DNA of 64,000 nt from Escherichia coli (GCF_002854065.1 NZ_CP024153.1), one strand, 5' to 3'; counted from the first letter of the stretch, positions 5,344 through 57,774 are shown. Numbers and translations: made by a program. Notes: a model not told the origin generated them from the sequence alone.

Positions 5344-6163
5344 GGCACTGTTGCAAATAGTCGGTGGTGATAAACTTATCATCCCCTTTTGCTGATGGAG
5401 CTGCACATGAACCCATTCAAAGGCCGGCATTTTCAGCGTGACATCATTCTGTGGGCCGTACGCTGGTACTGCAAATACGGCATCAGTTACCGTGAGCTGC
5501 AGGAGATGCTGGCTGAACGCGGAGTGAATGTCGATCACTCCACGATTTACCGCTGGGTTCAGCGTTATGCGCCTGAAATGGAAAAACGGCTGCGCTGGTA
5601 CTGGCGTAACCCTTCCGATCTTTGCCCGTGGCACATGGATGAAACCTACGTGAAGGTCAATGGCCGCTGGGCGTATCTGTACCGGGCCGTCGACAGCCGG
5701 GGCCGCACTGTCGATTTTTATCTCTCCTCCCGTCGTAACAGCAAAGCTGCATACCGGTTTCTGGGTAAAATCCTCAACAACGTGAAGAAGTGGCAGATCC
5801 CGCGATTCATCAACACGGATAAAGCGCCCGCCTATGGTCGCGCGCTTGCTCTGCTCAAACGCGAAGGCCGGTGCCCGTCTGACGTTGAACACCGACAGAT
5901 TAAGTACCGGAACAACGTGATTGAATGCGATCATGGCAAACTGAAACGGATAATCGGCGCCACGCTGGGATTTAAATCCATGAAGACGGCTTACGCCACC
6001 ATCAAAGGTATTGAGGTGATGCGTGCACTACGCAAAGGCCAGGCCTCAGCATTTTATTATGGTGATCCCCTGGGCGAAATGCGCCTGGTAAGCAGAGTTT
6101 TTGAAATGTAAGGCCTTTGAATAAGACAAAAGGCTGCCTCATCGCTAACTTTGCAACAGTGCC
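5344..6163 (+). mobile_element. IS26 copy 2
   Basis: Identical to copy 1 including terminal repeats. Confidence 0.95.
5389..6111 (+). CDS. tnpA: IS26 transposase Tnp26 (Gly184 form)
   Basis: Identical 240-aa ORF. Confidence 0.95.
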   Translation: MLMELHMNPFKGRHFQRDIILWAVRWYCKYGISYRELQEMLAERGVNVDHSTIYRWVQRYAPEMEKRLRWYWRNPSDLCPWHMDETYVKVNGRWAYLYRAVDSRGRTVDFYLSSRRNSKAAYRFLGKILNNVKKWQIPRFINTDKAPAYGRALALLKREGRCPSDVEHRQIKYRNNVIECDHGKLKRIIGATLGFKSMKTAYATIKGIEVMRALRKGQASAFYYGDPLGEMRLVSRVFEM

Positions 6164-6409
6164 GTCGATTGAAACACGGTGCATCTGATCGGACAGGGCG
6201 TCTAAGAGCGGCGCAATACGTCTGATCTCATCGGCCGGCGATACAGGCCTCGCGTCCGGATGGCTGGCGGCCGGTCCGACATCCACGACGTCTGATCCGA
6301 CTCGCAGCATTTCGATCGCCGCGGTGACAGCGCCGGCGGGGTCTAGCCGCCGGCTCTCATCGAAGAAGGAGTCCTCGGTGAGATTCAGAATGCCGAACAC
6401 CGTCACCAT
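6164..6409 (-). pseudogene. sul1: sul1 dihydropteroate synthase, first ~82 codons only; truncated by IS26
   Basis: [82 protein letters not shown] then IS26. Confidence 0.9.
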
Positions 6410-6750
6410 GGCGTCGGCCTCCGCAGCGACTTCCACGATGGGGATCGGGCGAGCAAAAAGGCAGCAATTATGAGCCCCATACCTACAAAGCCCCACGCAT
6501 CAAGCTTTTGCCCATGAAGCAACCAGGCAATGGCTGTAATTATGACGACGCCGAGTCCCGACCAGACTGCATAAGCAACACCGACAGGGATGGATTTCAG
6601 AACCAGAGAAAGAAAATAAAATGCGATGCCATAACCGATTATGACAACGGCGGAAGGGGCAAGCTTAGTAAAGCCCTCGCTAGATTTTAATGCGGATGTT
6701 GCGATTACTTCGCCAACTATTGCGATAACAAGAAAAAGCCAGCCTTTCAT
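6403..6750 (-). CDS. qacEdelta1: QacEdelta1 small multidrug-resistance efflux protein (class 1 integron 3'-CS)
   Basis: 115 aa [81 protein letters not shown]... Confidence 0.9.
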
Positions 6751-6972
6751 GATATATCTCCCAATTTGTGTAGGGCTTATTATGCACGCTTAAAAATAAT
6801 AAAAGCAGACTTGACCTGATAGTTTGGCTGTGAGCAATTATGTGCTTAGTGCATCTAACGCCGCCATAAACGGCGACAGGGTGGCGCGCCTATTGCGCAT
6901 AAAATGGCGAAGCCATGCGCAACAGGCGCGGAATCTCTGGCGTCCGGTTTGATGGCTTTGTTATGCAAAGGA

Positions 6973-7425
6973 CTAGTCTTCAATGACGTGTAAACCACGG
7001 CGCTTTAAGTCCTCCAACGAATCCAACATTCCCCTTATTAATTCAACAGGATGCCCCTCCCAGTCTTCAACAACGCCAACAATTCTCAAGGGTTCGCAGG
7101 TTCTATAGGACTGTGTTGGATTACCGGGAAATCTTTTGTTCGTAAGATTCGGATCGTCTTCGAACGGTCCTGTTGGCTCAACTATGTATATGTAGCCGCG
7201 ACCCTCGAGGCCAGACAGTGACATAGCAAGTTCAGCTCCCCAAACTGCTGGCTCCATCAAGGCTGAAAAGTAGATGTGCTTAAGAATACGACCGTCCTCG
7301 AAATGAGAGATGAACCCTGTGGTTAGCAAGTCACCAATCGCCAAATTGGCTTTGGTTCCATGATAGAACGGTCCTTGAACCTGCTTGTAATTATCATGAG
7401 AGATGGGAATCCAATCTTTTACCAT
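6973..7425 (-). CDS. arr-3: Arr-3 rifampin ADP-ribosyltransferase (integron cassette)
   Basis: 150 aa MVKDWIPISHDNYKQVQGPFYHGTKANLAIGDLLTTGF... Confidence 0.9.
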   Translation of the reverse strand: MVKDWIPISHDNYKQVQGPFYHGTKANLAIGDLLTTGFISHFEDGRILKHIYFSALMEPAVWGAELAMSLSGLEGRGYIYIVEPTGPFEDDPNLTNKRFPGNPTQSYRTCEPLRIVGVVEDWEGHPVELIRGMLDSLEDLKRRGLHVIED

Positions 7426-16584: not shown

Positions 16585-16673
16585 GAACTATTGAAGTAAT
16601 CAATCAAATTTTATAGGCTGATAGCCAAGTAACAACCACCAATGATATGCCAGGTAAAATCAGGGGACGTAAA

Positions 16674-18110
16674 ATGAGTACTCTTGATGTTCAGAAGCTC
16701 AAGGATGATGCCGTCGAATGGGCCTTAACTCATGGTGTTGCTTTCAAGGAATCGTCGTATTCCGCAGTGCATACCCCGTTTACCCTGACACCAACACCTA
16801 TCAGCCGTAAATCCTATCAGTACTTAAAGAATGCAACAGGAATACTCAGCAAATTAATCTATTCAGTTTCTGAGGATCATGATTTTTTGTACTCTGCGAT
16901 TTATCCCATCAAGGCCGGGAATGCCTTCTTTTCAGCCCTCCTGAACATGCATCAACAAATCCATTCATCATCAAGGCATGCTCCTCGATTACCATTACTC
17001 ATTATGCGTAGCGACTTTATGGATGATAATCGTGATGGGTTCAGGCTTATAGAGTTCAATGGTATAGCTGCAGGAATGGGGCCGTTTGGTCAGCGGATAC
17101 ATGATCTGCATCACTATCTACAACGGCAATATCCCGCTGTCTTTTCTGATTTATCGAATCAGGCAACAGGGGCGCTTGTCGACAATCAAGCGATCGAAGG
17201 GTTATCAGCAGCGATTTGTCAGGCAACTTGCAGAATTAAGCAGGAGTTCGGAGACCCCGGCCCTGCCAGGTTCCTGATGATTGTGCAGGAGAATGAAAAT
17301 AATGTGTTTGATCAACACTTGCTTGAGCTCGCCCTCCAGCAAAAAGGAATCGAAACGCATCGCAGGACTTTTCGTGAACTGCATAATCAATTGAGTACAG
17401 GCGCCGACAACAGGCTCATTCTCGAGGGTGTAGGCCCACTTGATACCGTCTACTTACGTGCCGGATATCAGTATTCTGATTATGAAGCATTCAATATCGA
17501 TGAGCAGGAGTGTTGTCAGGCGCTGATGGCGACCCGAGTATTCATTGAGCAGCACCGGGTTGCAGTGAACGCCACAGTTGGCCAGCAACTGGCGACCAGC
17601 AAGCGAGTACAAATGCTGCTCTCGCAATTGGGTTACGACGAGTTTGTCGCATTTGGATTAACACTGCAGGAAGCTAAAATAGCAAAAACGATACTGGGTG
17701 AGATGTTACCCATCAGCCCGGATAGTATCAACCTTGCAAAAGAGTCTCCTTCGGAAACCTGGGTTCTCAAAAATCAGGGTGAAGGCGGGGGGCATTGTCT
17801 GTTTGGTGCGGATATCCTGACAAAACTGACGGAACTCACTCCACAACAATATCAGTCCTGGTCGCTGATGCGCCGTTTACACCCTCAGCCCCGAGCTATG
17901 CCCACCTTGATTGTGCGTAAAGGGGAGTTGCATAAGGTGAATGATTTGATAAGCGAACTTGGAATGTTCTCCGTGCAGACAGATAACAATCCCTCCAGTG
18001 CTGAGCACAGTTTTGCTGGATATCTAATTCGTAGCAAATCAGCTGAATCGACAGAGGGAGGGGTCCATAGTGGACAAGGTGTTTTAGACTCGCTGGTATA
18101 CAGCGATTAG
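16674..18110 (+). CDS. Eukaryotic-type glutathione synthetase-like ATP-grasp protein (ORF track start 16647)
   Basis: Blocks resembling recalled human GSS: TPFTLTPT, IEFNGIAAGMGP, LMIVQENENNVFDQ...IETHRRTFREL, VYLRAGYQ, KNQGEGGGHCLFG. Confidence 0.7.
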   Translation: MSTLDVQKLKDDAVEWALTHGVAFKESSYSAVHTPFTLTPTPISRKSYQYLKNATGILSKLIYSVSEDHDFLYSAIYPIKAGNAFFSALLNMHQQIHSSSRHAPRLPLLIMRSDFMDDNRDGFRLIEFNGIAAGMGPFGQRIHDLHHYLQRQYPAVFSDLSNQATGALVDNQAIEGLSAAICQATCRIKQEFGDPGPARFLMIVQENENNVFDQHLLELALQQKGIETHRRTFRELHNQLSTGADNRLILEGVGPLDTVYLRAGYQYSDYEAFNIDEQECCQALMATRVFIEQHRVAVNATVGQQLATSKRVQMLLSQLGYDEFVAFGLTLQEAKIAKTILGEMLPISPDSINLAKESPSETWVLKNQGEGGGHCLFGADILTKLTELTPQQYQSWSLMRRLHPQPRAMPTLIVRKGELHKVNDLISELGMFSVQTDNNPSSAEHSFAGYLIRSKSAESTEGGVHSGQGVLDSLVYSD

Positions 18111-18527: not shown

Positions 18528-19532
18528 ATGGAAAACATTGCGCTCATTGGTATCGATCTGGGTAAAAACTCTTTCCATATTCATTGCCAAGATCGTCGCG
18601 GCAAGGCTGTTTACCGTAAAAAATTTACACGGCCAAAGTTAATCGAATTTTTGGCGACATGCCCCGCTACAACCATCGCAATGGAAGCCTGTGGTGGCTC
18701 TCACTTTATGGCACGCAAGTTGGAAGAGTTGGGGCATTTTCCTAAGCTGATATCACCACAATTTGTCCGTCCATTCGTTAAAAGTAACAAAAACGACTTT
18801 GTCGACGCCGAAGCTATTTGTGAAGCTGCATCGCGTCCGTCTATGCGTTTTGTACAGCCCAGAACTGAATCTCAGCAGGCAATGCGTGCGCTGCATCGTG
18901 TCCGTGAATCCCTGGTTCAGGATAAGGTAAAAACAACCAATCAGATGCATGCTTTTCTGCTGGAATTTGGCATCAGCGTTCCACGAGGAGCTGCCGTTAT
19001 TAGCCGACTGAGTACCCTTCTTGAGGACAATAGTTTGCCTCTATACCTCAGCCAGTTATTGCTGAAATTACAACAGCATTATCACTATCTTGTTGAGCAG
19101 ATTAAAGATTTGGAATCCCAGTTGAAACGAAAGTTGGACGAAGATGAGATTGGACAGCGCTTGCTGAGCATTCCCTGCGTCGGAACACTGACAGCGAGTA
19201 CTATTTCAACTGAGATTGGCGACGGGAAGCAGTACGCCAGCAGTCGTGACTTTGCGGCGGCAACAGGGCTAGTGCCTCGACAGTACAGCACGGGAGGTCG
19301 GACGACATTGCTGGGAATTAGTAAGCGAGGTAACAAAAAGATCCGAACTTTGTTGGTTCAATGTGCCAGGGTATTCATACAAAAACTGGAACACCAGTCT
19401 GGCAAATTGGCCGATTGGGTCAGGGATCTACTGTGTAGGAAAAGCAACTTTGTCGTCACTTGTGCTCTGGCAAACAAGCTGGCCAGAATAGCCTGGGCCC
19501 TAACGGCACGACAGCAAACTTATGTAGCATAA
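18528..19532 (+). CDS. IS110-family (DEDD) transposase/recombinase
   Basis: 334 aa MENIALIGIDLGKNSFHIHCQD... N-terminal RuvC-like DEDD character and C-terminal ...GISKRGNKKIRTLLVQCA... motif typical of the IS110 family. Confidence 0.85.
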   Translation: MENIALIGIDLGKNSFHIHCQDRRGKAVYRKKFTRPKLIEFLATCPATTIAMEACGGSHFMARKLEELGHFPKLISPQFVRPFVKSNKNDFVDAEAICEAASRPSMRFVQPRTESQQAMRALHRVRESLVQDKVKTTNQMHAFLLEFGISVPRGAAVISRLSTLLEDNSLPLYLSQLLLKLQQHYHYLVEQIKDLESQLKRKLDEDEIGQRLLSIPCVGTLTASTISTEIGDGKQYASSRDFAAATGLVPRQYSTGGRTTLLGISKRGNKKIRTLLVQCARVFIQKLEHQSGKLADWVRDLLCRKSNFVVTCALANKLARIAWALTARQQTYVA

Positions 19533-19807
19533 CGGCAGAAATACACCGGTTTAAAGAATCACTGATCTGGTTTTGCGAATACTGATATTGATGATACTAA
19601 CGGCCCACCGGCCTGTTGAGGAACCTGTAAAACGGAAAGGCTCATTGAAGCCGTATATTTTCTGGAGGTTCATCAGGCGCGGAACTCATCGAGGCGCGGG
19701 AATAAAATCCCATTCAGACGCCGGATAGATTCAAGCAAGCCAATTTATCGTCAAAATCGGTGTTGCAAAAACGGGAGTGACCATAGATTCCGTTTTCCAA
19801 GCGGACC

Positions 19808-19870
19808 CCGTGCTGTGTGGAAATCCGCCCACCTTGCCGGGCGCCGGTGCTGTGTGGAAATTCGCCCATC
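19808..19870. repeat. About 1.6 copies of the 37-bp repeat unit (inverted relative to the 56063-57150 array), just downstream of the truncated rep gene
   Basis: CCGTGCTGTGTGGAAATCCGCCCACCTTGCCGGGCGCCGGTGCTGTGTGGAAATTCGCCC is the reverse complement of the array unit. Confidence 0.75.
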
Positions 19871-19919
19871 TTCATGACAAAAATTTGTCAAATGACAGGC
19901 TCATGTGTGCTGATTTATG

Positions 19920-20601
19920 TCAGACGGGATTTTGCTTATCAATTATTGAGAACAGAAATTTTCCTGAATCATCAATACTATACTTAGCAAGTAAAGGTGT
20001 TTTCTCATTTATCTGCTTGAGAGCAGGATCAAGGAAAGATCGTTTCAACTCTGCCAAGTTCTTCTGTTGGGATTCCGGCAAAAGGAAACGGTCATTTAAC
20101 CAAGCATGAGTAGTAACCCATAAGCCTGAAGATTTGAATTGAGCAAGACTTTCATAAAGGCGGATCGTCCGTGGATTTCGAAGACTGCCACAATCGCGGA
20201 GCGAGTAGGTGGTGAACTGGTTCGTCAGGCCGTAAATGTACCGCAGGAGTTTATGGTTAAATTCGATTTCCCAGATACCACGAGCTGATCGGCTGCCAGC
20301 CTCTGTTAGCCAGGGGCGCGCGACGCAGTCAAAACTCCCTTCTTTCGGGTAAAAGATTACCGCAGAACGGCTTAACTCAAACACGCCTTCTTTAACATCC
20401 TTGATAGCCTGGTTACGGCTTACCTGAAAAATTTGCTGATAGTCAGCCACCTTTACTTTGAAAGTAGAGTCACCGAGTACAGCCATCTCATCATCATCTT
20501 CGCTTACTGAAGCTGTGAAATACGTCTGCATAAGACATAACCAGAGAACGCGCTTTGCTTTTAGCGAGAGGTAGTAAGCAGCTTCGGTAAGCTCGTTAGA
20601 C
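19920..20601 (-). pseudogene. Rep_3-family (RepE-like) replication initiator, N-terminally truncated by IS26
   Basis: ...NELTEAAYYLSLKAKRVLWL...IRLYESLAQF... parallels recalled F RepE ([20 protein letters not shown]...MRLYESLCQY); first 17 residues of the ORF come from the IS26 end. Confidence 0.75.
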
Positions 20602-21421
20602 GGCACTGTTGCAAAGTTAGCGATGAGGCAGCCTTTTGTCTTATTCAAAGGCCTTACATTTCAAAAACTCTGCTTACCAGGCGCATTTCGCCCAGGGGAT
20701 CACCATAATAAAATGCTGAGGCCTGGCCTTTGCGTAGTGCACGCATCACCTCAATACCTTTGATGGTGGCGTAAGCCGTCTTCATGGATTTAAATCCCAG
20801 CGTGGCGTTGATTATCCGTTTCAGTTTGCCATGATCGCATTCAATCACGTTGTTCCGGTACTTAATCTGTCGGTGTTCAACGTCAGACGGGCACCGGCCT
20901 TCGCGTTTGAGCAGAGCAAGCGCGCGACCATAGGCGGGCGCTTTATCCGTGTTGATGAATCGTGGGATCTGCCACTTCTTCACGTTGTTGAGGATTTTAC
21001 CCAGAAACCGGTATGCAGCTTTGCTGTTACGACGGGAGGAGAGATAAAAATCGACAGTGCGGCCCCGGCTGTCGACGGCCCGGTACAGATACGCCCAGCG
21101 GCCATTGACCTTCACGTAGGTTTCATCCATGTGCCACGGGCAAAGATCGGAAGGGTTACGCCAGTACCAGCGCAGCCGTTTTTCCATTTCAGGCGCATAA
21201 CGCTGAACCCAGCGGTAAATCGTGGAGTGATCGACATTCACTCCGCGTTCAGCCAGCATCTCCTGCAGCTCACGGTAACTGATGCCGTATTTGCAGTACC
21301 AGCGTACGGCCCACAGAATGATGTCACGCTGAAAATGCCGGCCTTTGAATGGGTTCATGTGCAGCTCCATCAGCAAAAGGGGATGATAAGTTTATCACCA
21401 CCGACTATTTGCAACAGTGCC
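20602..21421 (-). mobile_element. IS26 copy 5 (variant: Asn184 plus one synonymous change)
   Basis: 820 bp; ...KLKRIINATLGFKS... Confidence 0.95.
20654..21376 (-). CDS. tnpA: IS26 transposase Tnp26 (Asn184 form)
   Basis: 240-aa ORF; GGC to AAC at codon 184 relative to copies 1-3. Confidence 0.95.
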   Translation of the reverse strand: MLMELHMNPFKGRHFQRDIILWAVRWYCKYGISYRELQEMLAERGVNVDHSTIYRWVQRYAPEMEKRLRWYWRNPSDLCPWHMDETYVKVNGRWAYLYRAVDSRGRTVDFYLSSRRNSKAAYRFLGKILNNVKKWQIPRFINTDKAPAYGRALALLKREGRCPSDVEHRQIKYRNNVIECDHGKLKRIINATLGFKSMKTAYATIKGIEVMRALRKGQASAFYYGDPLGEMRLVSRVFEM

Positions 21422-21491
21422 GATTAGAGCACTATAAAGAACTAAAGAAATGAAGATACAAAGATACGAATATCTGAATAAAAACAGAAAA

Positions 21492-21612
21492 ATGCGTACC
21501 CATCCACCTTTCAGTGCGTACCCATCCACCTTTCAGTGCGCAGCCATCCACCTTTCATGAAAATTACAGTGCGTACCCATCCACCTTTCAGTGCGTACCC
21601 ATCCACCTTTCA
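21492..21612. repeat. Five direct 22-bp iteron-like repeats GTGCGTACCCATCCACCTTTCA (origin-like)
   Basis: Read directly; four near-perfect copies and one variant (GCGCAGCCATCCACCTTTCA). Confidence 0.75.
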
Positions 21613-21783
21613 TTTTGAGGCGACAAAAAACAACACCTATCTTAATGAAATTATTGATAAAAAAACTGGCACAATGTTTGCAGAATAAGTTAGAGTAAGT
21701 TAAAGATCTTAAAGTAGATCTACCGATCTACATTTAAGATCTTAAAAACAAGAAGTTTAATAAGCAAAAAAACACAAAAAATC

Positions 21784-21831
21784 TGTGGATAACTTTGCTC
21801 AAAACAAAAAATTCACACTACCTGTGGATAA
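21784..21831. promoter_or_regulatory. Two DnaA-box-like sites TGTGGATAA, 30 bp apart, in AT-rich DNA
   Basis: CTGTGGATAACTTTG appears twice; AT-rich context beside the iterons. Confidence 0.5.
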
Positions 21832-22474
21832 CTTTGCGTAAACCCAGAGGACAGATCACTCTGAACCAAGACAACCACACATAAAAACAATATGCTCGCT
21901 TTTTAACCACTGCGCGTAATTGCCTGATGTTATCCCTGTGCTGTTCCGCTTCCTCGCTCACTAACTCGCTACACTCGGTCGTTCGGCTGCGGCGAGCGGT
22001 GTCTCCTTTCTCAAAACCAGAAGAGTTCAGATCATACGATCCGTTGATTGATCCTTTTTGGATCTTTCACTGAGAAGCCCTGAATCGCTTTCTAACGCTT
22101 TGTTCGATGTAACCATGAGGAAAACCATGTGAAATCGAAAAAATCGCTCAGAATGCGATACAGCGCGTTTTAGAGGGTATTTACAAAACAGTCGTTGCCT
22201 TGAGGAAATTTTGATCAAGATTGAACTCCTATCCGGATCATGGCAACAGATCACAGCAACAAGGCCGCTAAAAAGCGTTGAGCGGCGTTAAAAACCGTTA
22301 AACCGTAGCTGACTATAACGAAACGGGAAAAAACGCTCAGAACGCGTTACAGAGCGTTTTAAGGCGATGTCGGAAAGAGCCATACCTCACCTGTTCTGAT
22401 GTTTTTCTCAACACAAGCACTTTTAAGAGTACTTTTAAAGATGCTATTATGCCAATAAGACAAGCGGAGGACTT

Positions 22475-22726
22475 ATGAGCTATCAAATTCTGACAACCAC
22501 AGCGGCCAGTATTACTGACCTGAAAAAAAATCCTATGGGAACCGTAGCTGAAGGTGAAGGGGACGCTGTTGCGATCCTGAACCGAAACGAACCGGCGTTC
22601 TATTGCGTTCCACCAAAACTTTACGCCTACTATCGGGAACTCGCTGAAGATGCTGAGTTAAACGCTGTTGCTGATGAGCGCATGAAAAACCCGGAAATTG
22701 TGAAGGTTAACCTGGATGACCTATGA
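22475..22726 (+). CDS. Phd/YefM/StbD-type antitoxin
   Basis: 83-aa ORF overlapping the downstream RelE-like gene by 11 bp; typical antitoxin size and arrangement. Confidence 0.7.
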   Translation: MSYQILTTTAASITDLKKNPMGTVAEGEGDAVAILNRNEPAFYCVPPKLYAYYRELAEDAELNAVADERMKNPEIVKVNLDDL

Positions 22727-22997
22727 ACTGGCTTTTGACCGCAGAGCACTGAAGGAATGGCAGAAACTCGGCCACACCATCCGTGAACAATTCAAAAAGA
22801 AGCTGGCAGAACGGCTGGAAAATCCACGCGTACCCGCAGCCCGGTTACATGGTCATGCTGATCGCTATAAAATCAAACTTCGTGCATCTGGCTACAGACT
22901 TGTATATCAAGTCATTGATGAGAAAGTCGTTTTACTCGTTATTGCTGTTGGAAGAAGGGAAAGCAGCGAAGTTTATCAGATTGCAGATATGCGCTGA
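22716..22997 (+). CDS. RelE/StbE/ParE-family toxin
   Basis: 93 aa MTYELAFDRRALKEWQKLGHTIREQFKKKLAERLENPRVPAARLHGHADRYKIKLRASGYRLVYQVIDEKVVLLVIAVGRRE, characteristic RelE/StbE pattern. Confidence 0.8.
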   Translation: MTYELAFDRRALKEWQKLGHTIREQFKKKLAERLENPRVPAARLHGHADRYKIKLRASGYRLVYQVIDEKVVLLVIAVGRRESSEVYQIADMR

Positions 22998-23183
22998 ACT
23001 GAAACCCGCCCCGTAATTCGCGGCTGCAGCCGCTCAGACGCGCAGATGCTACACACCGTCACGGCGTACCGTTCGCAAGCTTACGCGCTAACTGCGAAAG
23101 GCTAATTGCGTGTTGTTAGTCCGGTAATGGGCTTTGCAGGGAGGGGGGATGTCCCTGATCTTAATTAAGCTGGTTTGTTTCCG

Positions 23184-23325
23184 GGCACTGTTGCAAAGTT
23201 AGCGATGAGGCAGCCTTTTGTCTTATTCAAAGGCCTTACATTTCAAAAACTCTGCTTACCAGGCGCATTTCGCCCAGGGGATCACCATAATAAAATGCTG
23301 AGGCCTGGCCTTTGCGTAGTGCACG
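23184..23325 (-). mobile_element. IS26 fragment (142 bp of one end, internally truncated)
   Basis: GGCACTGTTGCAAAGTTAGCGATGAGG...GCGTAGTGCACG matches the IS26 end, then diverges. Confidence 0.9.
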
Positions 23326-25002
23326 TATAGGAAATTGAAAAACCAGTCGATACCATTGTCCACGCCTTATGCCACGTGAGCCTTTCTGCTTTTCCCACCA
23401 CTCCGGTGGTTTCCCTCTCTGTATGGTCGATTTTTATACCGTAACAGGCTGTTTTTTATACTTTCACCGATTCCCGGGCACACTTAGCCTGTGTCAGGCC
23501 GGCATATACCTCAGTAGACTGATATCCCGCGCGTTTTTCTTCAGCCCTGATACATTCAGCCCCGCAATGGCCCGGCGGTATACCATCCGGCAGCCACACA
23601 GCACGCATTCGAACGGGTCACGACTCAGGAACTGTTTCACCATTTGTGCATAGCACACTTTCGCCACTGGTTCCGGTTTATCCATCCCCAGTGCACGGTA
23701 CACCTGCGGCAGCTTCTCTCCACACACACGGTTGGCAAGGAACCCGAAGTACCTCACCATCTTAAAAAACTTCTCCGGGATGTGCTGTTTCAGCCTCGCG
23801 ACCAGCTCACGCTGTGTCAGCGTTTCCGTCGCCGTTTCTCCCGTTTTGTGGTCCAGGTAACGGAAGCTCAGGCTTGCCCCTCCGTTGTAATGAGCCAGTC
23901 GGGAAGCCGCTATTGGTGGCTTCTTCAGATAACGACCCAGGTAGCGTGCCGTATTCCGCCCTCCGGCTGTCTTCTTCGACATGTACACATGCCAGTATTT
24001 TCCGCCGGATTTCAGCACCAGGCTTCTCCACTGTGATTCCGTCGTGATATGTGACAACGACTCCGGCATTGCCATCCCCTCTGACCACGCTTTCAGAAGC
24101 AGCTGCCGCATATTCCACATCCACCGTGAACGCATCGCGTCTTTCAGGAAGCTCAGCTTTTTCCACTGACCATGCTTATTCAGACCTCCACAGGTTACAG
24201 ACACATGTACATGCGGATGCCAGTTGAGACGACGGCCATACGTGTGGATGGCGCAGAAGATACCGGGTTCCAGCCCCCGTTTTCGGGCGGCATACAGCAG
24301 ATTCTCCACCGCCAGACGGCACACGTCATTCAGCAGCCAGCGGTTGCTTTCGAACACCGGCCACAGCGTGTCCGGCAGGGTGAAGACCAGATGTACCCAG
24401 TCGCAGTCAGGAAGACGATTCAGCTGTGTTGCTGTCCACAGGTCTGTGGCCTTCTTTCCGCAGGACGGGCAGGCACGGCTGCCGCATGAGTTGGTCAGGT
24501 ACTTTACGTGCTGACAGTCCGGGTTATCACACCCGAACTCTTTTACACCCAGTATCCGTGTGCCGCAGGCCAGCATTTTGGTGACGGCTTCAACCTCGAT
24601 ATCGCGCAGACCGCCCGCATCCAGGAAGGACGTCCAGCACTGGTTGGCTGTGAACAGACGTTTCAGAGGGCGGGGAGTAAAACCGGACAACATGAGGATG
24701 GATTAAACCCCGGTATCCTGTAGCAGGGTAAGGGCTGCTGTATCGCCACGGCGCTTCAGGATGGAGGTCGTCACCATCGCAGGTGGTGGGTCCATGGGTT
24801 TGAGCATTTTCATCCAGTCCCATTCTCGTTGTGAGAGCTTCTCAGCACCAACAGAGAGCAGAACTGTATCGATACTTTTGCGGGTCAACATAAGGGGATG
24901 AGTCCTTAATAAAACAGGTCCTCAGAGCATACATATTCTGCGGGGCGTGCGGCAACAACAGGACGAACCGGGGCGGTTTTCAATTTGCAGCCGCCAGGCT
25001 GC
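23326..25002 (-). mobile_element. IS91-family rolling-circle element (IS1294-like, about 1.68 kb); boundaries approximate
   Basis: Single HUH/Y2-type transposase ORF plus small upstream ORF; length consistent with IS1294; one end duplicated at 16471-16584. Confidence 0.65.
23494..24693 (-). CDS. tnpA: IS91-family (IS1294-like) transposase
   Basis: 399 aa with Cys-rich zinc-binding N-terminus (CGTRILGVKEFGCDNPDCQHVKYLTNSCGSRACPSCGKK), HVH (HPHVHVSV) motif and C-terminal tyrosines typical of IS91-family Y2 transposases. Confidence 0.85.
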   Translation of the reverse strand: MLSGFTPRPLKRLFTANQCWTSFLDAGGLRDIEVEAVTKMLACGTRILGVKEFGCDNPDCQHVKYLTNSCGSRACPSCGKKATDLWTATQLNRLPDCDWVHLVFTLPDTLWPVFESNRWLLNDVCRLAVENLLYAARKRGLEPGIFCAIHTYGRRLNWHPHVHVSVTCGGLNKHGQWKKLSFLKDAMRSRWMWNMRQLLLKAWSEGMAMPESLSHITTESQWRSLVLKSGGKYWHVYMSKKTAGGRNTARYLGRYLKKPPIAASRLAHYNGGASLSFRYLDHKTGETATETLTQRELVARLKQHIPEKFFKMVRYFGFLANRVCGEKLPQVYRALGMDKPEPVAKVCYAQMVKQFLSRDPFECVLCGCRMVYRRAIAGLNVSGLKKNARDISLLRYMPA

Positions 25003-47929: not shown

Positions 47930-48331
47930 TTGTCTGACTCAGCTACACTTAACCGGTACCTGTCTGAAAGGAATTATTATATGAAAATCAAAAACACCCT
48001 TTTTGTAATATTAATGTTATCCCTGCCAGCCATTTCTGCTGAACATTCGGAAATGAAAATGTCAGATATGCACTCATCGGCATCATCACAGGAATATATG
48101 GCTGGCATGAAAAATATGCATGAAAAAATGATGGCCGCCGTTAATGAATCCAATCCCGATAAGGCCTTTGCAAAAGGTATGATCGCACACCATGAAGGGG
48201 CAATCGCAATGGCTGAGACCGAGCTCAAATACGGAAAAGATCCCGAAATGAGAAAGCTTGCGCAGGACATCATTAAAGCTCAAAAAGGTGAAATTGAGCA
48301 GATGAATAAATGGCTTGACAGTCATAAATAA
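47930..48331 (+). CDS. DUF305-family periplasmic protein (metal-resistance associated); true start probably internal (about 47981)
   Basis: Signal peptide MKIKNTLFVILMLSLPAISA and ...GMIAHHEGAIAMAE... motif. Confidence 0.65.
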   Translation: MSDSATLNRYLSERNYYMKIKNTLFVILMLSLPAISAEHSEMKMSDMHSSASSQEYMAGMKNMHEKMMAAVNESNPDKAFAKGMIAHHEGAIAMAETELKYGKDPEMRKLAQDIIKAQKGEIEQMNKWLDSHK

Positions 48332-48404
48332 TGAACACTGGAGTGTTGTCTTGCGCACCCTCTTAGGGTACCCCCGGACACGAAAATATATAGCACTTAA
48401 CTAA

Positions 48405-48432
48405 TTAAAAACCCGAATAATTTCGGGTTTTT
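48405..48432 (+). terminator. Rho-independent terminator (AAACCCGAA/TTCGGGTTT stem plus T-run)
   Basis: Read directly. Confidence 0.6.
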
Positions 48433-48718
48433 AATGTAACTTTCTTTTCTGAACGGAAATAATAGTCATACAATTTAATTTTCTTGTAATTACTCCTACT
48501 TTTAATCAGGTACTGGACGATGGATAACGACTCCCGCCTGAGAGGGAAAATCCGTCTGGTTACCTGGCGCTATACTTAACCGATTGATCGACATGCCATG
48601 CTGGTAAAATATTAAAATCCTCCCCCATAAATCTGAACCACATGACAGGATTGATAGTCAGGCAGTATTTCACATTCATTGCTAAAAAAATAAAAATAAG
48701 CATGCATCTTCTCGAAGA

Positions 48719-49633
48719 TTAATTACCTTCCATCTTGTAAAAAAGAATCAAATCCTCTAATAATATCTCGATTCCCGCTTTTTTTAATACATCTTTCCGC
48801 TCGGCATATATTTTCCTCAACATATCTTCAAACCCCTTGCCAAGATGAATTTGTTTATGGCAGTTGCAACATAGTGATATGATATTCTCTTCCACATCCA
48901 GTGAATTCTCAAAATAGTCTTGCTTTGACATCGGGACAATGTGATGAGGTTCTGTGTAATTTAGAGGAGAGTTTCGCCTTCTGAACGTTGGATGGTCGCA
49001 ATTAATTTCACATTTATAATCAGCTTTGTTAAGCGCATTTTTTGAAACAGATTTACTTCTTGGGTATGAGAGTCCATTTTTGACTTCTATTGCAGCTTTC
49101 TTAGGTTTCGCTTTTTCGCTATACTCAAATGTCTGAGTAACGTCAAAGTGATTACTTTCTTCTAGAGCAGTGATCAAATCATTATCTGAGTAAAAATCAA
49201 TGCTTGAGCTTTCGTTCGTACTAAAAAAATCTAGTTCTTTTATTGCCTGAACAAGTTCTTCACGGATAGTCCATAAATTTCGCTTTGGGTTTCCTTTAAT
49301 TTCTCTACTTTTCATGACTGTAATGAATTTTGTCCCGGAAGCAATCTTTCCGACTCCTTTAACCTCGAATCGGCCAAGCTGCTTCTGAACTCTTCCACCC
49401 AACCCATTGATTACACCATTAGCACTCATACTGTGCAGGTCGTACTTCTTGCCGATATCGAAACATGTACAGGAATGGTCTGGCTCAATGAACCATTTTT
49501 TTAACGCTGCAATACTTTTGTCATCAAAAACTTTTTTATCCCTTAATAAAATCTTCCATTCTTCAACGCTAATATCTATATCACAGACGTATTCACCATC
49601 AATTACTTCACATATTTTTTCAATCATGTCCAT
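48719..49633 (-). CDS. HNH (His-Me finger) endonuclease-domain protein with uncharacterised ~200-aa N-terminal domain
   Basis: C-terminal YKCEINCDHP...EPHHIVPMS...SLCCNCHKQIHLG HNH/zinc-finger motifs; low-GC gene flanked by ~400-600 bp AT-rich non-coding DNA. Confidence 0.75.
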   Translation of the reverse strand: MDMIEKICEVIDGEYVCDIDISVEEWKILLRDKKVFDDKSIAALKKWFIEPDHSCTCFDIGKKYDLHSMSANGVINGLGGRVQKQLGRFEVKGVGKIASGTKFITVMKSREIKGNPKRNLWTIREELVQAIKELDFFSTNESSSIDFYSDNDLITALEESNHFDVTQTFEYSEKAKPKKAAIEVKNGLSYPRSKSVSKNALNKADYKCEINCDHPTFRRRNSPLNYTEPHHIVPMSKQDYFENSLDVEENIISLCCNCHKQIHLGKGFEDMLRKIYAERKDVLKKAGIEILLEDLILFYKMEGN

Positions 49634-50243
49634 AACTCTCTTGTAACACAGGCTTTGTAATAATGTAAAATCCGTTACACGGCGTTGTATGTAATGTCAT
49701 TGTCTCTTGGACTCCTACAGTCCAAAACAACTTTGTGTTTTGTTGTCCAAAAACTTTTTGTTGCAGTGAGTTCTCACTGAGATAAATCTCGCCTTGAGCG
49801 TATCACATCAGCAGACTTCCTCTCAACCTTATGGACTTAACCCGGTCATTCTTCACGACAAAGAAAGTACGGCATTTTACATGACGAAGAGACGGTCTCA
49901 GTTTCACATGACCGGATAACGTTTTTAATGTACTTCATTATTACGGCACGGGTGTTCAAAGAGTATTTTTAAATATTAATCATTTTGTTTAACGGGTGGA
50001 TACCTACAAATTTTAACATTTACTAATCAAGATAGCAGTTATACGTACTGTCCCGGCAAAAATCCTGAGGTTTACAGATTCCCTCACCGTAACAGACCCG
50101 GTCATTCCCCCTGGTCCTCCGGAGAGTCTAGTACGAGTGATAAACGTGAATTCCTGTACCTGAAGTTCAGCCGCTGGCAGATAAGTCGTGAACTATAATT
50201 ACATTCAGTCAGATCCAAACACCTTTTCATCTGCATATATACT

Positions 50244-51239
50244 TTGTACATACCAGGAGATTACATGCAGGCACCCGGTATACCGGAGAATGAAGAACAG
50301 AGGCTGAAGTCCCTGTATATTACCGGCCTTCTTGATACCCGTGACGATGAGCGTTTTGAACGCCTGACGCGGCTGGCCCGTAAAGCCTTTCAGGTCCCGG
50401 TGGCCCTGATAAGCCTGCTGGATCGCGAGCGCCAGTGGCTCCTCGCCTGCCAGGGCGTCGGCGTGCGCGAAACCCCGCGTAACATCTCGTTCTGCGGGCA
50501 TGCCATTCTGCAGGAGGGGCCCTTCATTGTTCACGACGCAGCTGCTGATGAGCGGTTCCGTGACAATCCCCTGGTCACCGGTGAGCCCCACATCCGGTTC
50601 TACGCCGGCCAGCCGGTGAGCCTGCCCGACGGCACGGTGGCCGGCACGCTGTGCCTGATCCACACCGTTCCCCGCGCCTTCACGGATGATGACATTGCGT
50701 CCCTCCGGGATCTGGCCTGTATCGTGGAAGACGAATTCGAGGCCATCAGCATGGCCATGACGGACAGCCTGACGGGCATTCCCAACCGGCGCGGGTTTTA
50801 CCGCGCCGGCGAAAAACTCTTCCGCGCGATGAACCGGCAGGATGCGTCGTTCAGCCTCATCTATTTCGATCTGGACAGGTTCAAACCGGTGAACGATCTC
50901 TGGGGGCACGCAGAGGGAGACGAGGTGCTGAAGGTTTTTGCCGGCTTTTTACATCAGCACCTCGAACCGGGCGAAATAGCAGGCCGCCTCGGCGGGGATG
51001 AGTTTGCCGCCCTGATCCGGCGAAACGGGAACACGAGTTCTTTTCTGCACGCGCTGAGTGCCAGTTTGGATCATTACAATGACACCTCGGGCAAGCCCTA
51101 CAACATCAATTATTCCTTTGGCGAACTGATCAATAACGCAGACCAGTACGCGACGCTGGCGGAAATGATCGGCAAATGTGACGAAGTGATGTACCTGAAG
51201 AAAAAACGAAAGACCCTGTCGCGGAAAGCAGAACCGTGA
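50244..51239 (+). CDS. GAF-domain diguanylate cyclase (GGDEF)
   Basis: N-terminal GAF-like region; C-terminal ...RLGGDEFAAL... GGDEF active-site motif. Confidence 0.85.
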   Translation: MYIPGDYMQAPGIPENEEQRLKSLYITGLLDTRDDERFERLTRLARKAFQVPVALISLLDRERQWLLACQGVGVRETPRNISFCGHAILQEGPFIVHDAAADERFRDNPLVTGEPHIRFYAGQPVSLPDGTVAGTLCLIHTVPRAFTDDDIASLRDLACIVEDEFEAISMAMTDSLTGIPNRRGFYRAGEKLFRAMNRQDASFSLIYFDLDRFKPVNDLWGHAEGDEVLKVFAGFLHQHLEPGEIAGRLGGDEFAALIRRNGNTSSFLHALSASLDHYNDTSGKPYNINYSFGELINNADQYATLAEMIGKCDEVMYLKKKRKTLSRKAEP

Positions 51240-51808
51240 CGTTCTCCTTCCCGGCTGATCCCCTGCCCCGGGGTTCAGCCGGACGGCAGGAACAATATAT
51301 TTAACCTCATGGCGCATAAAGTCATTTATATTTGCTCATGGCGCAATAATCCTCTCATCGCAACAATTACTCGTTTTTTGTGTCCATGCTGCAAAAATTC
51401 CTCTCTTCCTCTCCCGAGATCCGAAAAAAGGTAGTCCCGGATCTCTGCGAACCCCACCGGCGCGCAGCGGCCCGACAACACAAGATGTAGCGGTGTTTCC
51501 AGCTGATAGTGACGCCATATGTTGTGTCCCTCTCCTGCCCCGTGACCCGGCGCGCAGCATCAGAAAACAGTGCTTCGCTTACTTCCTGACCGTGATAAAC
51601 TTCCGGAAACTTCGCTAAATGTGAAAAGTCGGATCTGCCGGAAACGGTCATTCGGTAATTTAACAGCGTTGCTATATGGCTGCTTATTATCAGTCAAAAA
51701 AATAATTACAGTATGGGAAATTCATCCAGGTGACAGATGCAGGATTGTGCTCAGCTAATTATACCTTGCGTCATAATTACACTTAGTGACTATTTATTAG
51801 GAGGCTAA

Positions 51809-52105
51809 ATGCACGCATCAATGGTTCATGTCTGGGAGTATCTGACACGTTGTGGTCATAAATTTCTATGGCTAAAAATTAACCCTCTACCTCCAGGATA
51901 TACCGGTTCGGTATACAGAGCGCAGTTTGAAATTTACAGCGCGTCGGGCCGTATTCTGGTCACGCTTGATGTGCACAGACAGCAATGGGTGTGTTCAGCA
52001 AACAATCCTCGCCGTGAACCTGCTGATAAAAACGGGGTCATGCTTGATAGCGGTATACCTCTGGATAGAAACCTCGCATCACATTATGCAAAACAGGGGT
52101 ACTGA
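51809..52105 (+). CDS. Hypothetical small protein (98 aa)
   Basis: Strong RBS (AGGAGG) 7 bp upstream of ATG; no recognisable motif. Confidence 0.5.
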   Translation: MHASMVHVWEYLTRCGHKFLWLKINPLPPGYTGSVYRAQFEIYSASGRILVTLDVHRQQWVCSANNPRREPADKNGVMLDSGIPLDRNLASHYAKQGY

Positions 52106-52169
52106 ATGAATCTAACCCTGGTACAAGCACTGGCAGATGCCTGGCGGGATTTCTCAATAAGGATCAAAC

Positions 52170-52841
52170 ATGGCTGACTGGTTTATTGCGACTGAGGGCG
52201 TGAAGGTGGTGAAGGACAGTGCCAGCCTGTGGCCGCAGATCGTTACGGCTATTTCCTCTGCCGGCGCAGCCCTGGTGGGTGTTGCTCTCACACACCGTTT
52301 TACCCGCAGGCGTGAAGAAGCTACTGCTGCACGTAAACGTTACGATGAATTGTACTTTATATCTACCGAGCTAGTTTTTCTGCTGGAGCGTTTTGCACAA
52401 CGCTGTGTTTATTCTGCTAATGAATCAGGGGAATATGACCAAGATGGACGTATTAGGATTGAGTATTCTTTACCTGAAATCAATTTCGAGTCCATTACTG
52501 GGGACTGGCGTTCTCTGCCACCAGGATTGATGTACAGACTTGCTGAATTGCCAGTCATCTGCAGGGAAGCCGCGAGTTCTATAAGTGCGGCGTTCAATGA
52601 AGATACTCCCTTCGATGGATCGTATGGAATTTTCGAACTTAACAGGCAGTCTGCAAGACTCGGATTAAAAGCAATACGTTTATCCCGTTGGCTACGTCAG
52701 CTATGCGATATGCCTGGGGACAGGTTGTCTGACGACCGTTGGTCGGCATGGAGTGTTTTGTATCGGAAGCGCTGGGAGCATATTAGGAATAATAACAATG
52801 TTCACCGCCGATATAAACGGTTGCCTGATGTTACTGAGTAG
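52170..52841 (+). CDS. Hypothetical membrane-anchored protein (223 aa, one N-terminal TM helix)
   Basis: RBS (AGGA) upstream; hydrophobic segment LWPQIVTAISSAGAALVGVAL; ends 19 bp before the recombinase gene. Confidence 0.55.
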   Translation: MADWFIATEGVKVVKDSASLWPQIVTAISSAGAALVGVALTHRFTRRREEATAARKRYDELYFISTELVFLLERFAQRCVYSANESGEYDQDGRIRIEYSLPEINFESITGDWRSLPPGLMYRLAELPVICREAASSISAAFNEDTPFDGSYGIFELNRQSARLGLKAIRLSRWLRQLCDMPGDRLSDDRWSAWSVLYRKRWEHIRNNNNVHRRYKRLPDVTE

Positions 52842-54841: not shown

Positions 54842-56062
54842 TGTAGATTCAATCTGTCAATGCAACACCCCTTTCAATTATCTCTTTCGGTGTTTTGAAC
54901 TTCAGTGTCTTTCTCGGTCTGTTGTTTAGCTGAGCAGCAACCAGATCTAGTTCATGTTGAGTATATTGGGCAAGACATGTCTTTTTAGGAAAGTACTGCC
55001 GAATTAGCCCATTTGTGTTCTCATTTGTTCCCCGCTGCCAAGGACTCTGAGGATCGCAGAAGTAAACTTTAACGCCGGTGCTGACAGTAAATTCTAGATG
55101 TCTGGCCAGTTCCATTCCTCTGTCCCATGTCAGTGATTTTCTGAGTTCTGACGGTAAACTCAGGAATTTGTCGGTAAGAGCCTGATTTACTGAGACAGAA
55201 TCTTTGCCCCTGAGTCTAAGGATGATCGTATAACGTGATTTTCGGTCTACAAGTGTGGCTATATGAGAGTTTTTTGTACCTGAGACTAAATCGCCCTCCC
55301 AATGCCCCAGAGAGCGTCTGTTATCGATATTTCGGGAACGTTCGTGAATTGGTGTTCCGTTCACTATGTTAATCGTACCTCTTTCGCCTTTGCGGGTATG
55401 ACGCCTGCCATGGCGAAGGCTATGCGACCGTCGCAGATGCTGTATATTCAGGTGGTGTAGCGCTTCACGGCTACGAAAGTACAGCGTTTTATAAATTGTC
55501 TCAGGTGATATTCGCAGCGTTTTTTGACGTGGTTTTGTTCGCCTTAACCATCCTGATATTTGCTCTGGAGACCATTTCATCTCCAGCTTTTCCAGAACAA
55601 GCTTTCGCAATGGTAAATTTTGATCCAGTAAGCACGGTTTTGGCCTTTTCGCCATTCTGTTGGCTCGGTTATTAGCATCAACAGCTTTGTAATAGCGTCT
55701 GCCCCGATTACGCTGAACTTCACGTGAGATCGTCGAAGGACTGCGATTCAGCGCAGTAGCTATCGCACGAATGCTCATTTTGGCTGACAAACCAGCTCGT
55801 ATCTCCTCGCGCTCAGACAGTGTCAGGTGAGCTACAGCCCGCTTACGCTCATGGGGTTTTATGCCGCCAGTATCCCTTAACATAGTGAAGATCGTTCCGG
55901 GTTTTGAACCCAGGATATTCGCTATTTCACTGAAGCCTGTTCCGTTCTTCCATAGTTCAAAAACAGAGGCTTTTTCCTCTGCTGTAAATGTTCATCTCAT
56001 TCAAAAAACCTCCGCAACCCCATGTTTTCACATAACTGTTGCGTTGACCAATTGAATCTACA
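54842..56062 (-). mobile_element. IS30 (1221 bp)
   Basis: Terminal repeats TGTAGATTCAAT...; no matching 2-bp target duplication (GC left, GG right). Confidence 0.9.
54849..56000 (-). pseudogene. IS30 transposase with TGA at codon 3 (ATG AGA TGA); 344-aa ORF resumes at internal Met
   Basis: Recalled IS30 Tnp begins MRRTFTAEEK...; window reads M R stop T F T A E E K in the same frame. Confidence 0.7.
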
Positions 56063-57150
56063 GGGCGGATTTCCACACAGCACCGGCGCCCGGCAAGGTG
56101 GGCCGATTTCCACACAGCACCGGTGCGCGGCAAGGTGGGCCGATTTCCACACAGCACCGGCGCCCGGCAAGGTGGGCTGATTCCCACACGGCACCGGCGC
56201 CCGGCAAGGTGGGCGGATTTCCACACAGCACCGGCGCGCGGCAAGGTGGGCTGATTCCCACACGGCACCGGCGCCCGGTAAGGTGGGCGGATTTCCACAC
56301 GGCACCGGCGCCCGGTAAGGTGGGCGGATTTCCACACAGCACCGGCGCCCGGCAAGGTGGGCTGATTCCCACACGGCACCGGCGTCCGGTAAGGTGGGCG
56401 GATTTCCACACAGCACCGGCGCGCGGCAAGGTGGGCCGATTTCCACACGGCACCGGCGCCCGGCAAGGTGGGCGGATTTCCACACGGCACCGGCGCCCGG
56501 TAAGGTGGGCTGATTCCCACACGGCACCGGCGCCCGGCAAGGTGGGCTGATTCCCACACGGCACCGGCGCCCGGTAAGGTGGGCGGATTTCCACACAGCA
56601 CCGGCGCGCGGCAAGGTGGGCTGATTCCCACACGGCACCGGCGTCCGGTAAGGTGGGCGGATTTCCACACAGCACCGGCGCGCGGCAAGGTGGGCTGATT
56701 CCCACACGGCACCGGCGCCCGGTAAGGTGGGCGGATTTCCACACGGCACCGGCGCCCGGCAAGGTGGGCTGATTCCCACACGGCACCGGCGCCCGGCAAG
56801 GTGGGCTGATTCCCACACGGCACCGGCGCCCGGTAAGGTGGGCTGATTCCCACACAGCACCGGCGCCCGGCAAGGTGGGCTGATTCCCACACGGCACCGG
56901 CGCCCGGCAAAGTGGGCGGATTTCCACACAGCACCGGCGCCCGGTAAGGTGGGCGGATTTCCACACAGCACCGGCGCCCGGCAAGGTGGGCTGATTCCCA
57001 CACGGCACCGGCGCCCGGTAAGGTGGGCGGATTTCCACACAGCACCGGCGCGCGGCAAGGTGGGCCGATTTCCACACAGCACCGGCGCCCGGCAAGGTGG
57101 GCGGATTTCCACACAGCACCGGCGCGCGGCAAGGTGGGCCGATTCCCATA
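56063..57150. repeat. Tandem array of ~29 copies of a 37-bp GC-rich repeat (consensus GGGCNGATTYCCACACRGCACCGGYGCSCGGYAAGGT)
   Basis: Period and copy variants read directly; begins exactly at the IS30 end. Confidence 0.9.
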
Positions 57151-57774
57151 TCGACATGTATGTAGCTTGTGTTATCCGTGGATTGTGCAGCTCAGCTGGT
57201 CGTATGGCGGAGTGTCCCCCGTAACCGGCCGCGTGCGGCCGCTAACGCGCAGTACGGCCCCCCCCGTGGGGGACGTGCGGCAGCTGCGTGGCGGTGAGCG
57301 GGATTAGGGCTTTGCAGCTACCGTGTTAAGTTCCCTGGTGTCGCTGAAAGAGTTGATGAACATCCCCCTAAGCGTCAGCAGCAAGCTGCCGCCGCTAAGT
57401 CCCCGGAAATCACGCCCTTTACGTCGTAAACGCCGTAAAGCCCGCTCACCGGGGTTAAAAGGGATTACTTTGACTTCTTCATTGCTGTTCGCGAGTTAAG
57501 GCTAATCAGGGCAGGGGGTAGGGTGGCAGAATTTATAGCCCGGCAACGGGCTACGCCGGGCTTTCGGCGCCATTTTACAACACAGACACATGTAACCTCA
57601 TCTGGCGCCTCCATGCCGCTGACGCGGCATTCAGAAGCTTCCCAATGCTGTAGGTTTTAACATCTGCTTTATGTCAGAAGCGGATGGTTCAGAAGCCAGC
57701 AGTTTCCAATAACAGATATAGTATCGAACCGGATACTCATGATTTTTGGGTGACGCTGCCAACTTACTGATTTA

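Follow-up and report, generated by a model that had tools for sequence, protein, structure and literature searches.

The closest characterized relative of the gene described here is Dcsbis (PA2771) of Pseudomonas aeruginosa (Protein Data Bank, PDB, entries 4ZMU and 4ZMM). Dcsbis is a diguanylate cyclase of high activity, an enzyme that makes c-di-GMP (cyclic dimeric guanosine monophosphate); it dimerizes through helices alpha2 and alpha5 of its GAF domain, needs that domain for full activity (Chen et al. 2016, PMC4937426), and avoids product inhibition because a GAF loop covers its inhibitory site, or I-site (PMC4937426). Extra c-di-GMP synthases have also been described on mobile DNA, among them DgcK and DgcL of the SXT/R391 integrative and conjugative elements, the tLST island and the plasmid cyclases of Madsen et al. 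2018. A review credits cyclases on transmissible plasmids with raising conjugation as well as biofilm formation (PMC10333796, citing Madsen 2018), and a 2012 catalogue lists the GGDEF genes found on Klebsiella plasmids (PMC3431978). Here, we describe a plasmid gene of the same general kind from Escherichia coli (GCF_002854065.1, NZ_CP024153.1), found in a stretch of 64,000 nucleotides that we call the window. The product of this gene is very probably a diguanylate cyclase of the Dcsbis type, soluble, able to carry out catalysis and lacking an I-site. The SXT/R391, tLST and Madsen et al. cyclases resemble it in adding a c-di-GMP synthase to mobile DNA; by their descriptions they have other sensor domains and belong to other lineages.

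The gene is present as an open reading frame (ORF) at window positions 50244–51239 on the plus strand, 331 codons long when counted from a TTG. The coding sequence that we favor runs from 50265 to 51239, with its TGA stop at 51237–51239, and specifies a 324-residue protein identical to WP_011251353.1 and to the UniRef entry Q6XQX3_ECOLX. The GAF-GGDEF architecture proposed in the initial annotation is borne out: on the 331-residue ORF, Pfam places a GAF domain at residues 36–158 (E 2.6e-16) and a GGDEF domain at residues 171–323 (E 6.7e-32), both well over their curated cut-offs. In the numbering of the 324-residue protein, which is used from here on, these are a GAF sensor domain of the Dcsbis type (residues 29–151, positions 50349–50717, plus strand) and a GGDEF catalytic domain (residues 164–316, positions 50754–51212, plus strand), the latter matching profile positions 1–158 of the 161 in PF00990. 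A long helix joins the two (residues 141–165, positions 50685–50759, plus strand) according to the AlphaFold2 secondary structure. The generic diguanylate-cyclase domain model of NCBIfam, TIGR00254, reaches 99.8 bits, the cut-off being 37.4, and no named NCBIfam equivalog scored above its own cut-off for this protein.

The structural comparison leads to Dcsbis by several routes. An AlphaFold2 model built on 78 homologues has a predicted local distance difference test score of 92.9 and a predicted template modeling score of 0.83, and a Foldseek search of the PDB with this model returned 4ZMU as its top match (E 1.5e-33). The GGDEF domain of the model superposes on solved active cyclases with a root-mean-square deviation (rmsd) of 2.3–3.2 Å (Foldseek) and can be aligned from end to end with GGDEF domains of known structure, among them 5XGB and 3IGN. 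The best sequence match of the cyclase in the PDB is again 4ZMU (E 1e-52), and the GAF region taken alone matches 4ZMU (E 7.5e-37) and no other solved GAF domain. Both proteins have the same two-domain layout, with identities of about 44% for the GAF domain and about 36% for the first half of the GGDEF domain; both contain the GAF motifs SFCGHAIL, DxRFxDNPLVTG, IRFYAG and GTLCLI, and where Dcsbis has its ‘protecting loop’ the plasmid cyclase has a loop of equal length (LPDGTV vs ASNGQA). They differ in that the RPED I-site of Dcsbis is blocked by its own GAF loop, whereas the plasmid cyclase has no I-site to block. The linker of the plasmid cyclase is also 17 residues shorter, seen as a gap in the HMMER alignment to 4ZMU, and its gene is mobile where that of Dcsbis is chromosomal. 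Judged from its sequence, the plasmid cyclase is a relative of Dcsbis that lacks the Dcsbis mode of regulation.

The catalytic set is complete, comprising D202, K207, N210, D219, R241, the GGDEF motif at residues 243–247 and K313. The motif itself, which had been described as intact, proved to be so (50991–51005, plus strand); with the preceding R241 it occupies 50985–51005. The substrate- and metal-binding stretch FDLDRFKPVNDLWGHAEGD (50868–50921, plus strand), which includes D202, K207, N210 and D219, aligns to the motifs of solved cyclases. Taken together, the stretches DSLTGIPNRR, FDLDRFKPVND (with D202, K207 and N210), GHAEGD (D219), GRLGGDEF and the C-terminal MYLKK (K313) align to matching motifs in 3IGN, 5XGB, 4URS and 4ZMU. 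We take these residues to be the metal-binding Asp, the catalytic Lys, the base-recognizing Asn and Asp and the C-terminal phosphate-binding Lys, on a presumed correspondence with PleD numbering. In an alignment of 78 family members the catalytic positions are conserved in 68–77 sequences (D202 in 72, K207 in 70, N210 and D219 in 77 each), and at none of them does the window protein depart from the consensus. The concern that key residues outside the GGDEF motif might be degenerate can therefore be set aside, and because all of the residues checked are present, an active c-di-GMP synthase is to be expected. Hypr GGDEF enzymes, which are cyclic GMP-AMP (cGAMP) synthases such as GacA, have Ser or Thr in place of the Asp that lies nine residues after the base-binding Asn (PMC6456294). 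D219 stands nine residues past N210, the canonical arrangement for specificity to guanosine triphosphate (GTP), and we rejected an assignment to the Hypr/cGAMP synthases on account of this Asp219, which is not Ser.

The initial annotation had suggested looking for an inhibitory I-site motif, and none is present. At the I-site position (50964–50975, plus strand) EPGE (E234–E237) replaces RxxD; it aligns with RPED in Dcsbis, RQSD in 3IGN, REGD in PA0861 and RRSD in the T. maritima enzyme. In HLEPGEIAGRLGGDEF there is a Glu at the Arg position and another at the Asp position, and the RxxD pattern five residues upstream of GG(D/E)EF is missing, so that by motif the cyclase is not a product-inhibited enzyme of the PleD/WspR type. 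The I-site Arg is kept in just 11 of the 78 family members, the most distant ones, and where Dcsbis has its secondary Arg271 the cyclase has Asn254. Dcsbis shields its I-site, whereas the clade of the plasmid cyclase has lost it entirely. Since RxxD is replaced by EPGE, the cyclase should, on this motif evidence, escape allosteric product inhibition.

The ORF first proposed has the right gene and the right end, and a start that lies 21 nucleotides too far upstream. TTG 50244 simply happens to be the first codon of start type after a stop. Translation almost certainly begins at ATG 50265, because an AGGAG Shine-Dalgarno sequence lies 5 nucleotides before it (50255–50259, plus strand; kept in the plasmid copies), the RefSeq coding sequence of 324 residues is annotated at the matching position in identical plasmids, homologues begin at the matching Met (MQAPG/MKFPG), and the seven-codon extension is not conserved (it diverges in a Klebsiella variicola copy, LYIPGDY vs LIVFRGN). 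The plus frame is also the one that bears the differences between alleles, 42 of 54 in one comparison and 113 of 160 in the other falling on its third codon positions. We rejected an antisense ORF of 234 residues (50205–50909) as a shadow ORF, a by-product of the high GC content of the gene, because the substitutions track the third positions of the plus frame.

WP_011251353.1 carries the name ‘sensor domain-containing diguanylate cyclase’ and occurs on at least 1,000 contigs. The gene was thus already annotated as the initial annotation described it, and it is a very common, ordinary cargo gene; what this analysis adds is a corrected start codon, a placement in the Dcsbis family rather than with DgcP, the absence of the I-site, and data on selection and linkage. 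In PLSDB, 839 of 72,556 plasmids have the gene, 552 of them from Klebsiella and 147 from Escherichia. Two groups of alleles stand out: 91 records with at least 99% identity, mostly from E. coli, and 706 at ~94.5%, mostly from Klebsiella, the latter allele being found on a liver-abscess virulence plasmid. Some 61% of the carrier plasmids are typed as non-mobilizable. Among 5,426 complete E. coli genomes the gene is present in 127, at 127 places on plasmids and 2 on chromosomes, and these two are the sole DNA-level matches in the E. coli chromosomes of that set. The protein is under purifying selection, since the ratio of nonsynonymous to synonymous substitution rates (dN/dS) is about 0.1, at 0.094 against the Klebsiella plasmid allele (5.5% of sites differ) and 0.10 against a prophage copy.

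The prophage copy lies on the K. variicola chromosome CP169737.1 (locus positions 6001–6975). It is 84% identical in DNA and 86% in protein, and sits in a lambdoid prophage between DinI/LexA-like genes and the abortive-infection gene AbiH. The window protein matches phrog_14602, a family of full-length phage and prophage GAF-GGDEF proteins, with an E-value of 7e-94. A phage origin was rejected: no close relative was found among GenBank phages or in IMG/VR, and viral contigs held distant full-length members only. Chromosomal homologues occur in K. aerogenes, Enterobacter, Kosakonia, Lelliottia, Citrobacter, Cronobacter and Pantoea; they are 318–319 residues long, 60–75% identical, and similar in architecture, short linker and loss of the I-site Arg. 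The 71% homologue of K. aerogenes has an ordinary chromosomal neighborhood near lacIZY. These homologues differ from the window gene in not being on mobile elements, and the mobile clade is the 86–100% identity group to which the window gene belongs. The likely history is that of an enterobacterial chromosomal gene captured by mobile elements, and capture from a chromosome of the Klebsiella/Enterobacter type fits the GC content of the gene, 59% overall and 72% at third codon positions (GC3). The initial annotation had contrasted this GC-rich gene with a neighboring HNH gene and read the contrast as a different origin. The compositional contrast holds, the HNH gene having 36% GC and a GC3 of 34% in a window of 51%; the origin itself is plausible, and here the argument runs from the ~70–75% identical chromosomal homologues of K. 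aerogenes, Enterobacter, Kosakonia, Lelliottia and Citrobacter.

DgcP (YeaP), the chromosomal GAF-GGDEF cyclase of E. coli K-12, nominally shares the domain names and, at 341 residues, is close in length. The similarity amounts to 34% identity over 161 residues centered on the GGDEF domain; the BLASTP alignment covers residues 110–256 and leaves the GAF part unaligned. Orthology with DgcP was rejected, as the similarity is not full-length and excludes the GAF domain. For the infection-associated ‘dgcE’ of a Klebsiella genome-wide association study (PMC9343666), no tie to the window gene was established, and it was likewise set aside.

The plasmid and prophage copies have about 1.2 kb in common, a unit delimited by comparison with the K. 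variicola prophage and made up of a CTATAAT sequence, the ribosome-binding site, the coding sequence and a 3′ hairpin. CTATAAT (50193–50199, plus strand) lies 65 nucleotides upstream of the ATG and is the putative -10 element of a cyclase promoter. None of the eight aligned copies deviates from it, including that of the K. variicola prophage, whose gene is 84% identical, and one from Raoultella flanked by the insertion sequence (IS) IS5. The C just before the hexamer, together with the lack of a recognizable -35, would presumably suit a promoter that depends on sigma-S or on an activator. Beyond the stop codon, a GC-rich hairpin without a U tract (51253–51281, plus strand) has a predicted energy of -27 kcal/mol (z -2.4). 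The hairpin of the prophage copy is predicted at -23.5 kcal/mol (z -3.7), its stem preserved by a compensatory G-C to U-A change, and the structure possibly marks the end of the mRNA or stabilizes it. An Rfam scan of 48300–52300 for riboswitches and other RNA elements gave a single sub-threshold match well upstream, to the rimP leader (E 0.53, 25 bits against a gathering threshold of 47). Just past the hairpin, within the segment that the K. variicola prophage also has, are two 22-nucleotide direct repeats ending in CTCATGGCGCA (51295–51316 and 51324–51345), 77% identical and 29 nucleotides apart. Further downstream, ~280 bp of non-coding DNA (51409–51690) match about 1,700 additional PLSDB plasmids at 76–86% identity. 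These plasmids, from Klebsiella and E. coli and including 94-kb Salmonella plasmids, are cyclase-free, and nothing is annotated under the matches; our guess is a backbone element, for example a multimer-resolution region or the region upstream of resD.

The initial annotation placed the gene on a resistance plasmid, and the content of the window agrees: it carries blaOXA-1, an aadA gene, oqxAB and SopA (NCBIfam naming) as well as sil genes, and over 11 kb it is 99.97% identical to the E. coli IncF plasmid p14EC001c. We sampled eight plasmid contexts to establish the neighborhood of the cyclase gene. The order silRS-silE-DUF305 followed by the cyclase was found on the upstream side in seven of the eight and in the window, usually with the HNH gene in between; the exception is the Raoultella plasmid, in which IS5 lies 13 nucleotides upstream of the -10 element. 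The downstream side varies between plasmids and terminates at a tyrosine integrase adjoining rep/par genes. The downstream neighbors are a PDC-S67 candidate in the window, a SLATT gene with a nucleotidyltransferase in Cronobacter pCS3, and ccdAB in Raoultella. Searches for flanking repeats or IS ends that might bound a cassette gave only short, chance-like matches.

The pKPN3-type plasmids of Klebsiella have a GAF-GGDEF gene of the same family (pBIC-1a, WP_004152065.1; 48% identity, E 9e-100), at the equivalent spot between the plasmid integrase and silE and also without RxxD. It belongs to a separate lineage of 315 residues and is not an allele of the window gene; it is probably KPN_pKPN3p05967 of Cruz et al. 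2012, its candidate match. As pKPN3-type plasmids hold a 48% family member at the equivalent locus, the interval from integrase to silE has acquired c-di-GMP genes more than once. In K. pneumoniae pBIC-1a (18888–24147), two EAL-domain fragments, with IS903B splitting them, come after the GAF-GGDEF gene. A tblastn search of the window for a companion phosphodiesterase or second GGDEF gene, in which the cyclase and two EAL proteins from plasmids were the queries, returned only the cyclase gene.

The mechanism that we propose for the cyclase follows that of Dcsbis. By homology to the four-helix bundle of Dcsbis, two subunits would pair through helices of their GAF domains and so bring two GGDEF domains together; each of these would bind one GTP, and the pair would condense both into c-di-GMP. 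The GAF pocket probably binds a small ligand that tunes activity. With EPGE in place of RxxD there would be no allosteric shut-off, and competition at the active site and the phosphodiesterases of the host would be the limits left. The gene would move as a self-contained unit of ~1.2 kb, which on plasmids nearly always occupies the silE end of the silver/copper island. Its expression would add to the c-di-GMP pool of the host and lead to less motility and more matrix and fimbriae, the candidate targets being curli, cellulose and poly-N-acetylglucosamine for E. coli and, for Klebsiella, the type 3 fimbriae that depend on MrkH. This would amount to an extra, feedback-free cyclase on ~1% of sequenced enterobacterial plasmids, including virulence plasmids of hypervirulent Klebsiella and multidrug-resistance plasmids of the IncF and IncR types. 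Carriers could shift toward biofilm, fimbrial adhesion and reduced motility, and plasmid transfer might rise as well. If so, co-selection by heavy metals and antibiotics would be linked to persistence traits. For experiments on the cyclase, Dcsbis is identified as the structural template.

Several points weigh against this picture. A literature search by accession, locus tag and keyword found no activity, expression or phenotype study of WP_011251353.1. A consensus scanner called no promoter upstream of the cyclase, passing over CTATAAT because no -35 hexamer is seen there, and expression could be low or conditional. Although each domain of the model matches Dcsbis, the full-length comparison gives a template modeling (TM) score of 0.49 and an rmsd of 17.7 Å, figures that refer to a monomer model only, and the arrangement of the domains and their regulation may differ from those of Dcsbis. 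Some of the 78 family members have degenerate GGDEF motifs (EGGKF, GGGEF), from which the family appears not to be always enzymatic. Finally, in P. aeruginosa Dcsbis changed motility and left biofilm formation unaffected (PMC4937426), and a biofilm phenotype is for that reason not guaranteed.

The alternative that survives best is a passive hitch-hiker, a gene that is intact but silent or nearly so, kept through its linkage to a selected sil/pco island and without measurable effect on c-di-GMP. The tight linkage to sil in seven of the eight contexts and the missing -35 element both suit such a gene, as do the truncated relatives, which comprise a copy at an IS/transposon junction in Serratia and clusters of 200–229 residues. 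Transcription data from a related Klebsiella plasmid point the same way: in E. coli most of its backbone and cargo genes are weakly transcribed, and the pKPN3-type paralogue reaches 43 reads per kilobase per million, compared with 127–224 for the rep genes (PMC6286996). The cyclase there is the 48% paralogue, and we rejected the pBIC-1a RNA sequencing as evidence for the expression of the window gene itself. Against a hitch-hiker, a dN/dS of ~0.1, both between plasmid alleles and against the prophage copy, indicates that the protein is still under selection; copies in widely differing contexts retain the -10 element and the 3′ hairpin; and some copies are not linked to sil, namely that of the prophage and the Raoultella copy behind IS5. 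Given the dN/dS in particular, we consider a silent hitch-hiker unlikely, though in any one host the gene may be silent.

Fainter still is the prospect that the cyclase acts as a stress-to-biofilm switch carried with the silver/copper island. Within the family the GAF domain is more strictly conserved than the GGDEF domain. The 78-sequence alignment has R72, S75, C77, H79, D95, R97, F98, R111, Y113 and C130 as invariant GAF residues. By their secondary-structure position these fall within the helices and strands that make up the floor and roof described for the Dcsbis pocket, and they probably line the pocket of the plasmid cyclase too. The ligand of the Dcsbis pocket is neither cyclic AMP nor cyclic GMP (PMC4937426). 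In the plasmid cyclase, C77, H79 and C130 could conceivably sense Cu(I), Ag(I) or thiol oxidation, a reading for which the conservation of these three residues and the physical linkage to sil are all that speaks. H79 is replaced in the pKPN3-type paralogue, and chromosomal family members unlinked to metal genes count against a role specific to metals. Were such a switch real, metal or oxidative stress would raise c-di-GMP without I-site restraint and produce a protected, sessile host, favoring retention and transfer of the plasmid.

Marginally less probable again is a gene that serves the mobile element, either by supplying c-di-GMP for conjugation or retention in biofilm, or by reducing surface receptors such as flagella and so excluding phages or superinfecting elements from within a defense hot spot. 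Its neighbors are often of defense type: the HNH gene has a weak match to the type IV methyl-directed restriction enzymes (PADLOC mREase_IV, 5.5e-7) and the 223-residue neighbor a PDC-S67 match (8e-28), and other contexts have SLATT with a nucleotidyltransferase, type I restriction-modification genes (Raoultella) or AbiH (the prophage). The phrog_14602 match, the distant full-length members in viral contigs and the review's statement that plasmid cyclases enhance conjugation (PMC10333796) could be read in the same sense. The cyclase itself, however, has no family match in PADLOC-DB v2; it is divergent from the HNH gene across 630 bp and forms no operon with any neighbor; its downstream neighbors differ between plasmids; no close relative is found in the phage or IMG/VR collections; and the majority of carrier plasmids are typed as non-mobilizable. 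A non-enzymatic sensor or scaffold, or a Hypr-like enzyme with another nucleotide product such as cGAMP, is scarcely credible: some family members do combine a degenerate motif with a retained GAF domain, and the GAF domain is the more strictly conserved of the two, but the window protein has the full catalytic set with Asp219 rather than the Hypr-defining Ser, and its nearest characterized relative, Dcsbis, is a very active cyclase.

Other features of the window deserve a brief description. The HNH gene (48719–49633, minus strand, 36% GC) encodes 304 residues with a C-terminal HNH match (Pfam, 1e-5) as the sole match besides mREase_IV; the N-terminal 180 residues have no family match, and the gene accompanies the cyclase on most of the sampled plasmids. 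Downstream of the cyclase, the ‘hypothetical protein’ of 223 residues (52170–52841, plus strand) is the PDC-S67 match and also matches phrog_33426 (5e-35). Just upstream of that gene is an ORF of 98 residues (51809–52105, plus strand) that matches no family and has a strong ribosome-binding site, AGGAGG. ORFs of 234 and 240 residues are repeated in the window and look like IS26, from their size and from the IS26 annotations on related plasmids. Between IS elements at ~56000–57200, a region of 65–71% GC has three overlapping minus-strand ORFs of 363–391 residues. None of the three has a Pfam match, and the 386-residue ORF has no NCBIfam match either; at the corresponding place the matching plasmid has just a short hypothetical gene annotated, then rclA. 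Lastly, an ORF of 487 residues (16647–18110, plus strand) matches the eukaryotic-type glutathione synthase (Pfam GSH_synth_ATP, 7.5e-61) and scores 236 bits against TIGR01986, under the cut-off of 330, an unusual cargo for a resistance plasmid.

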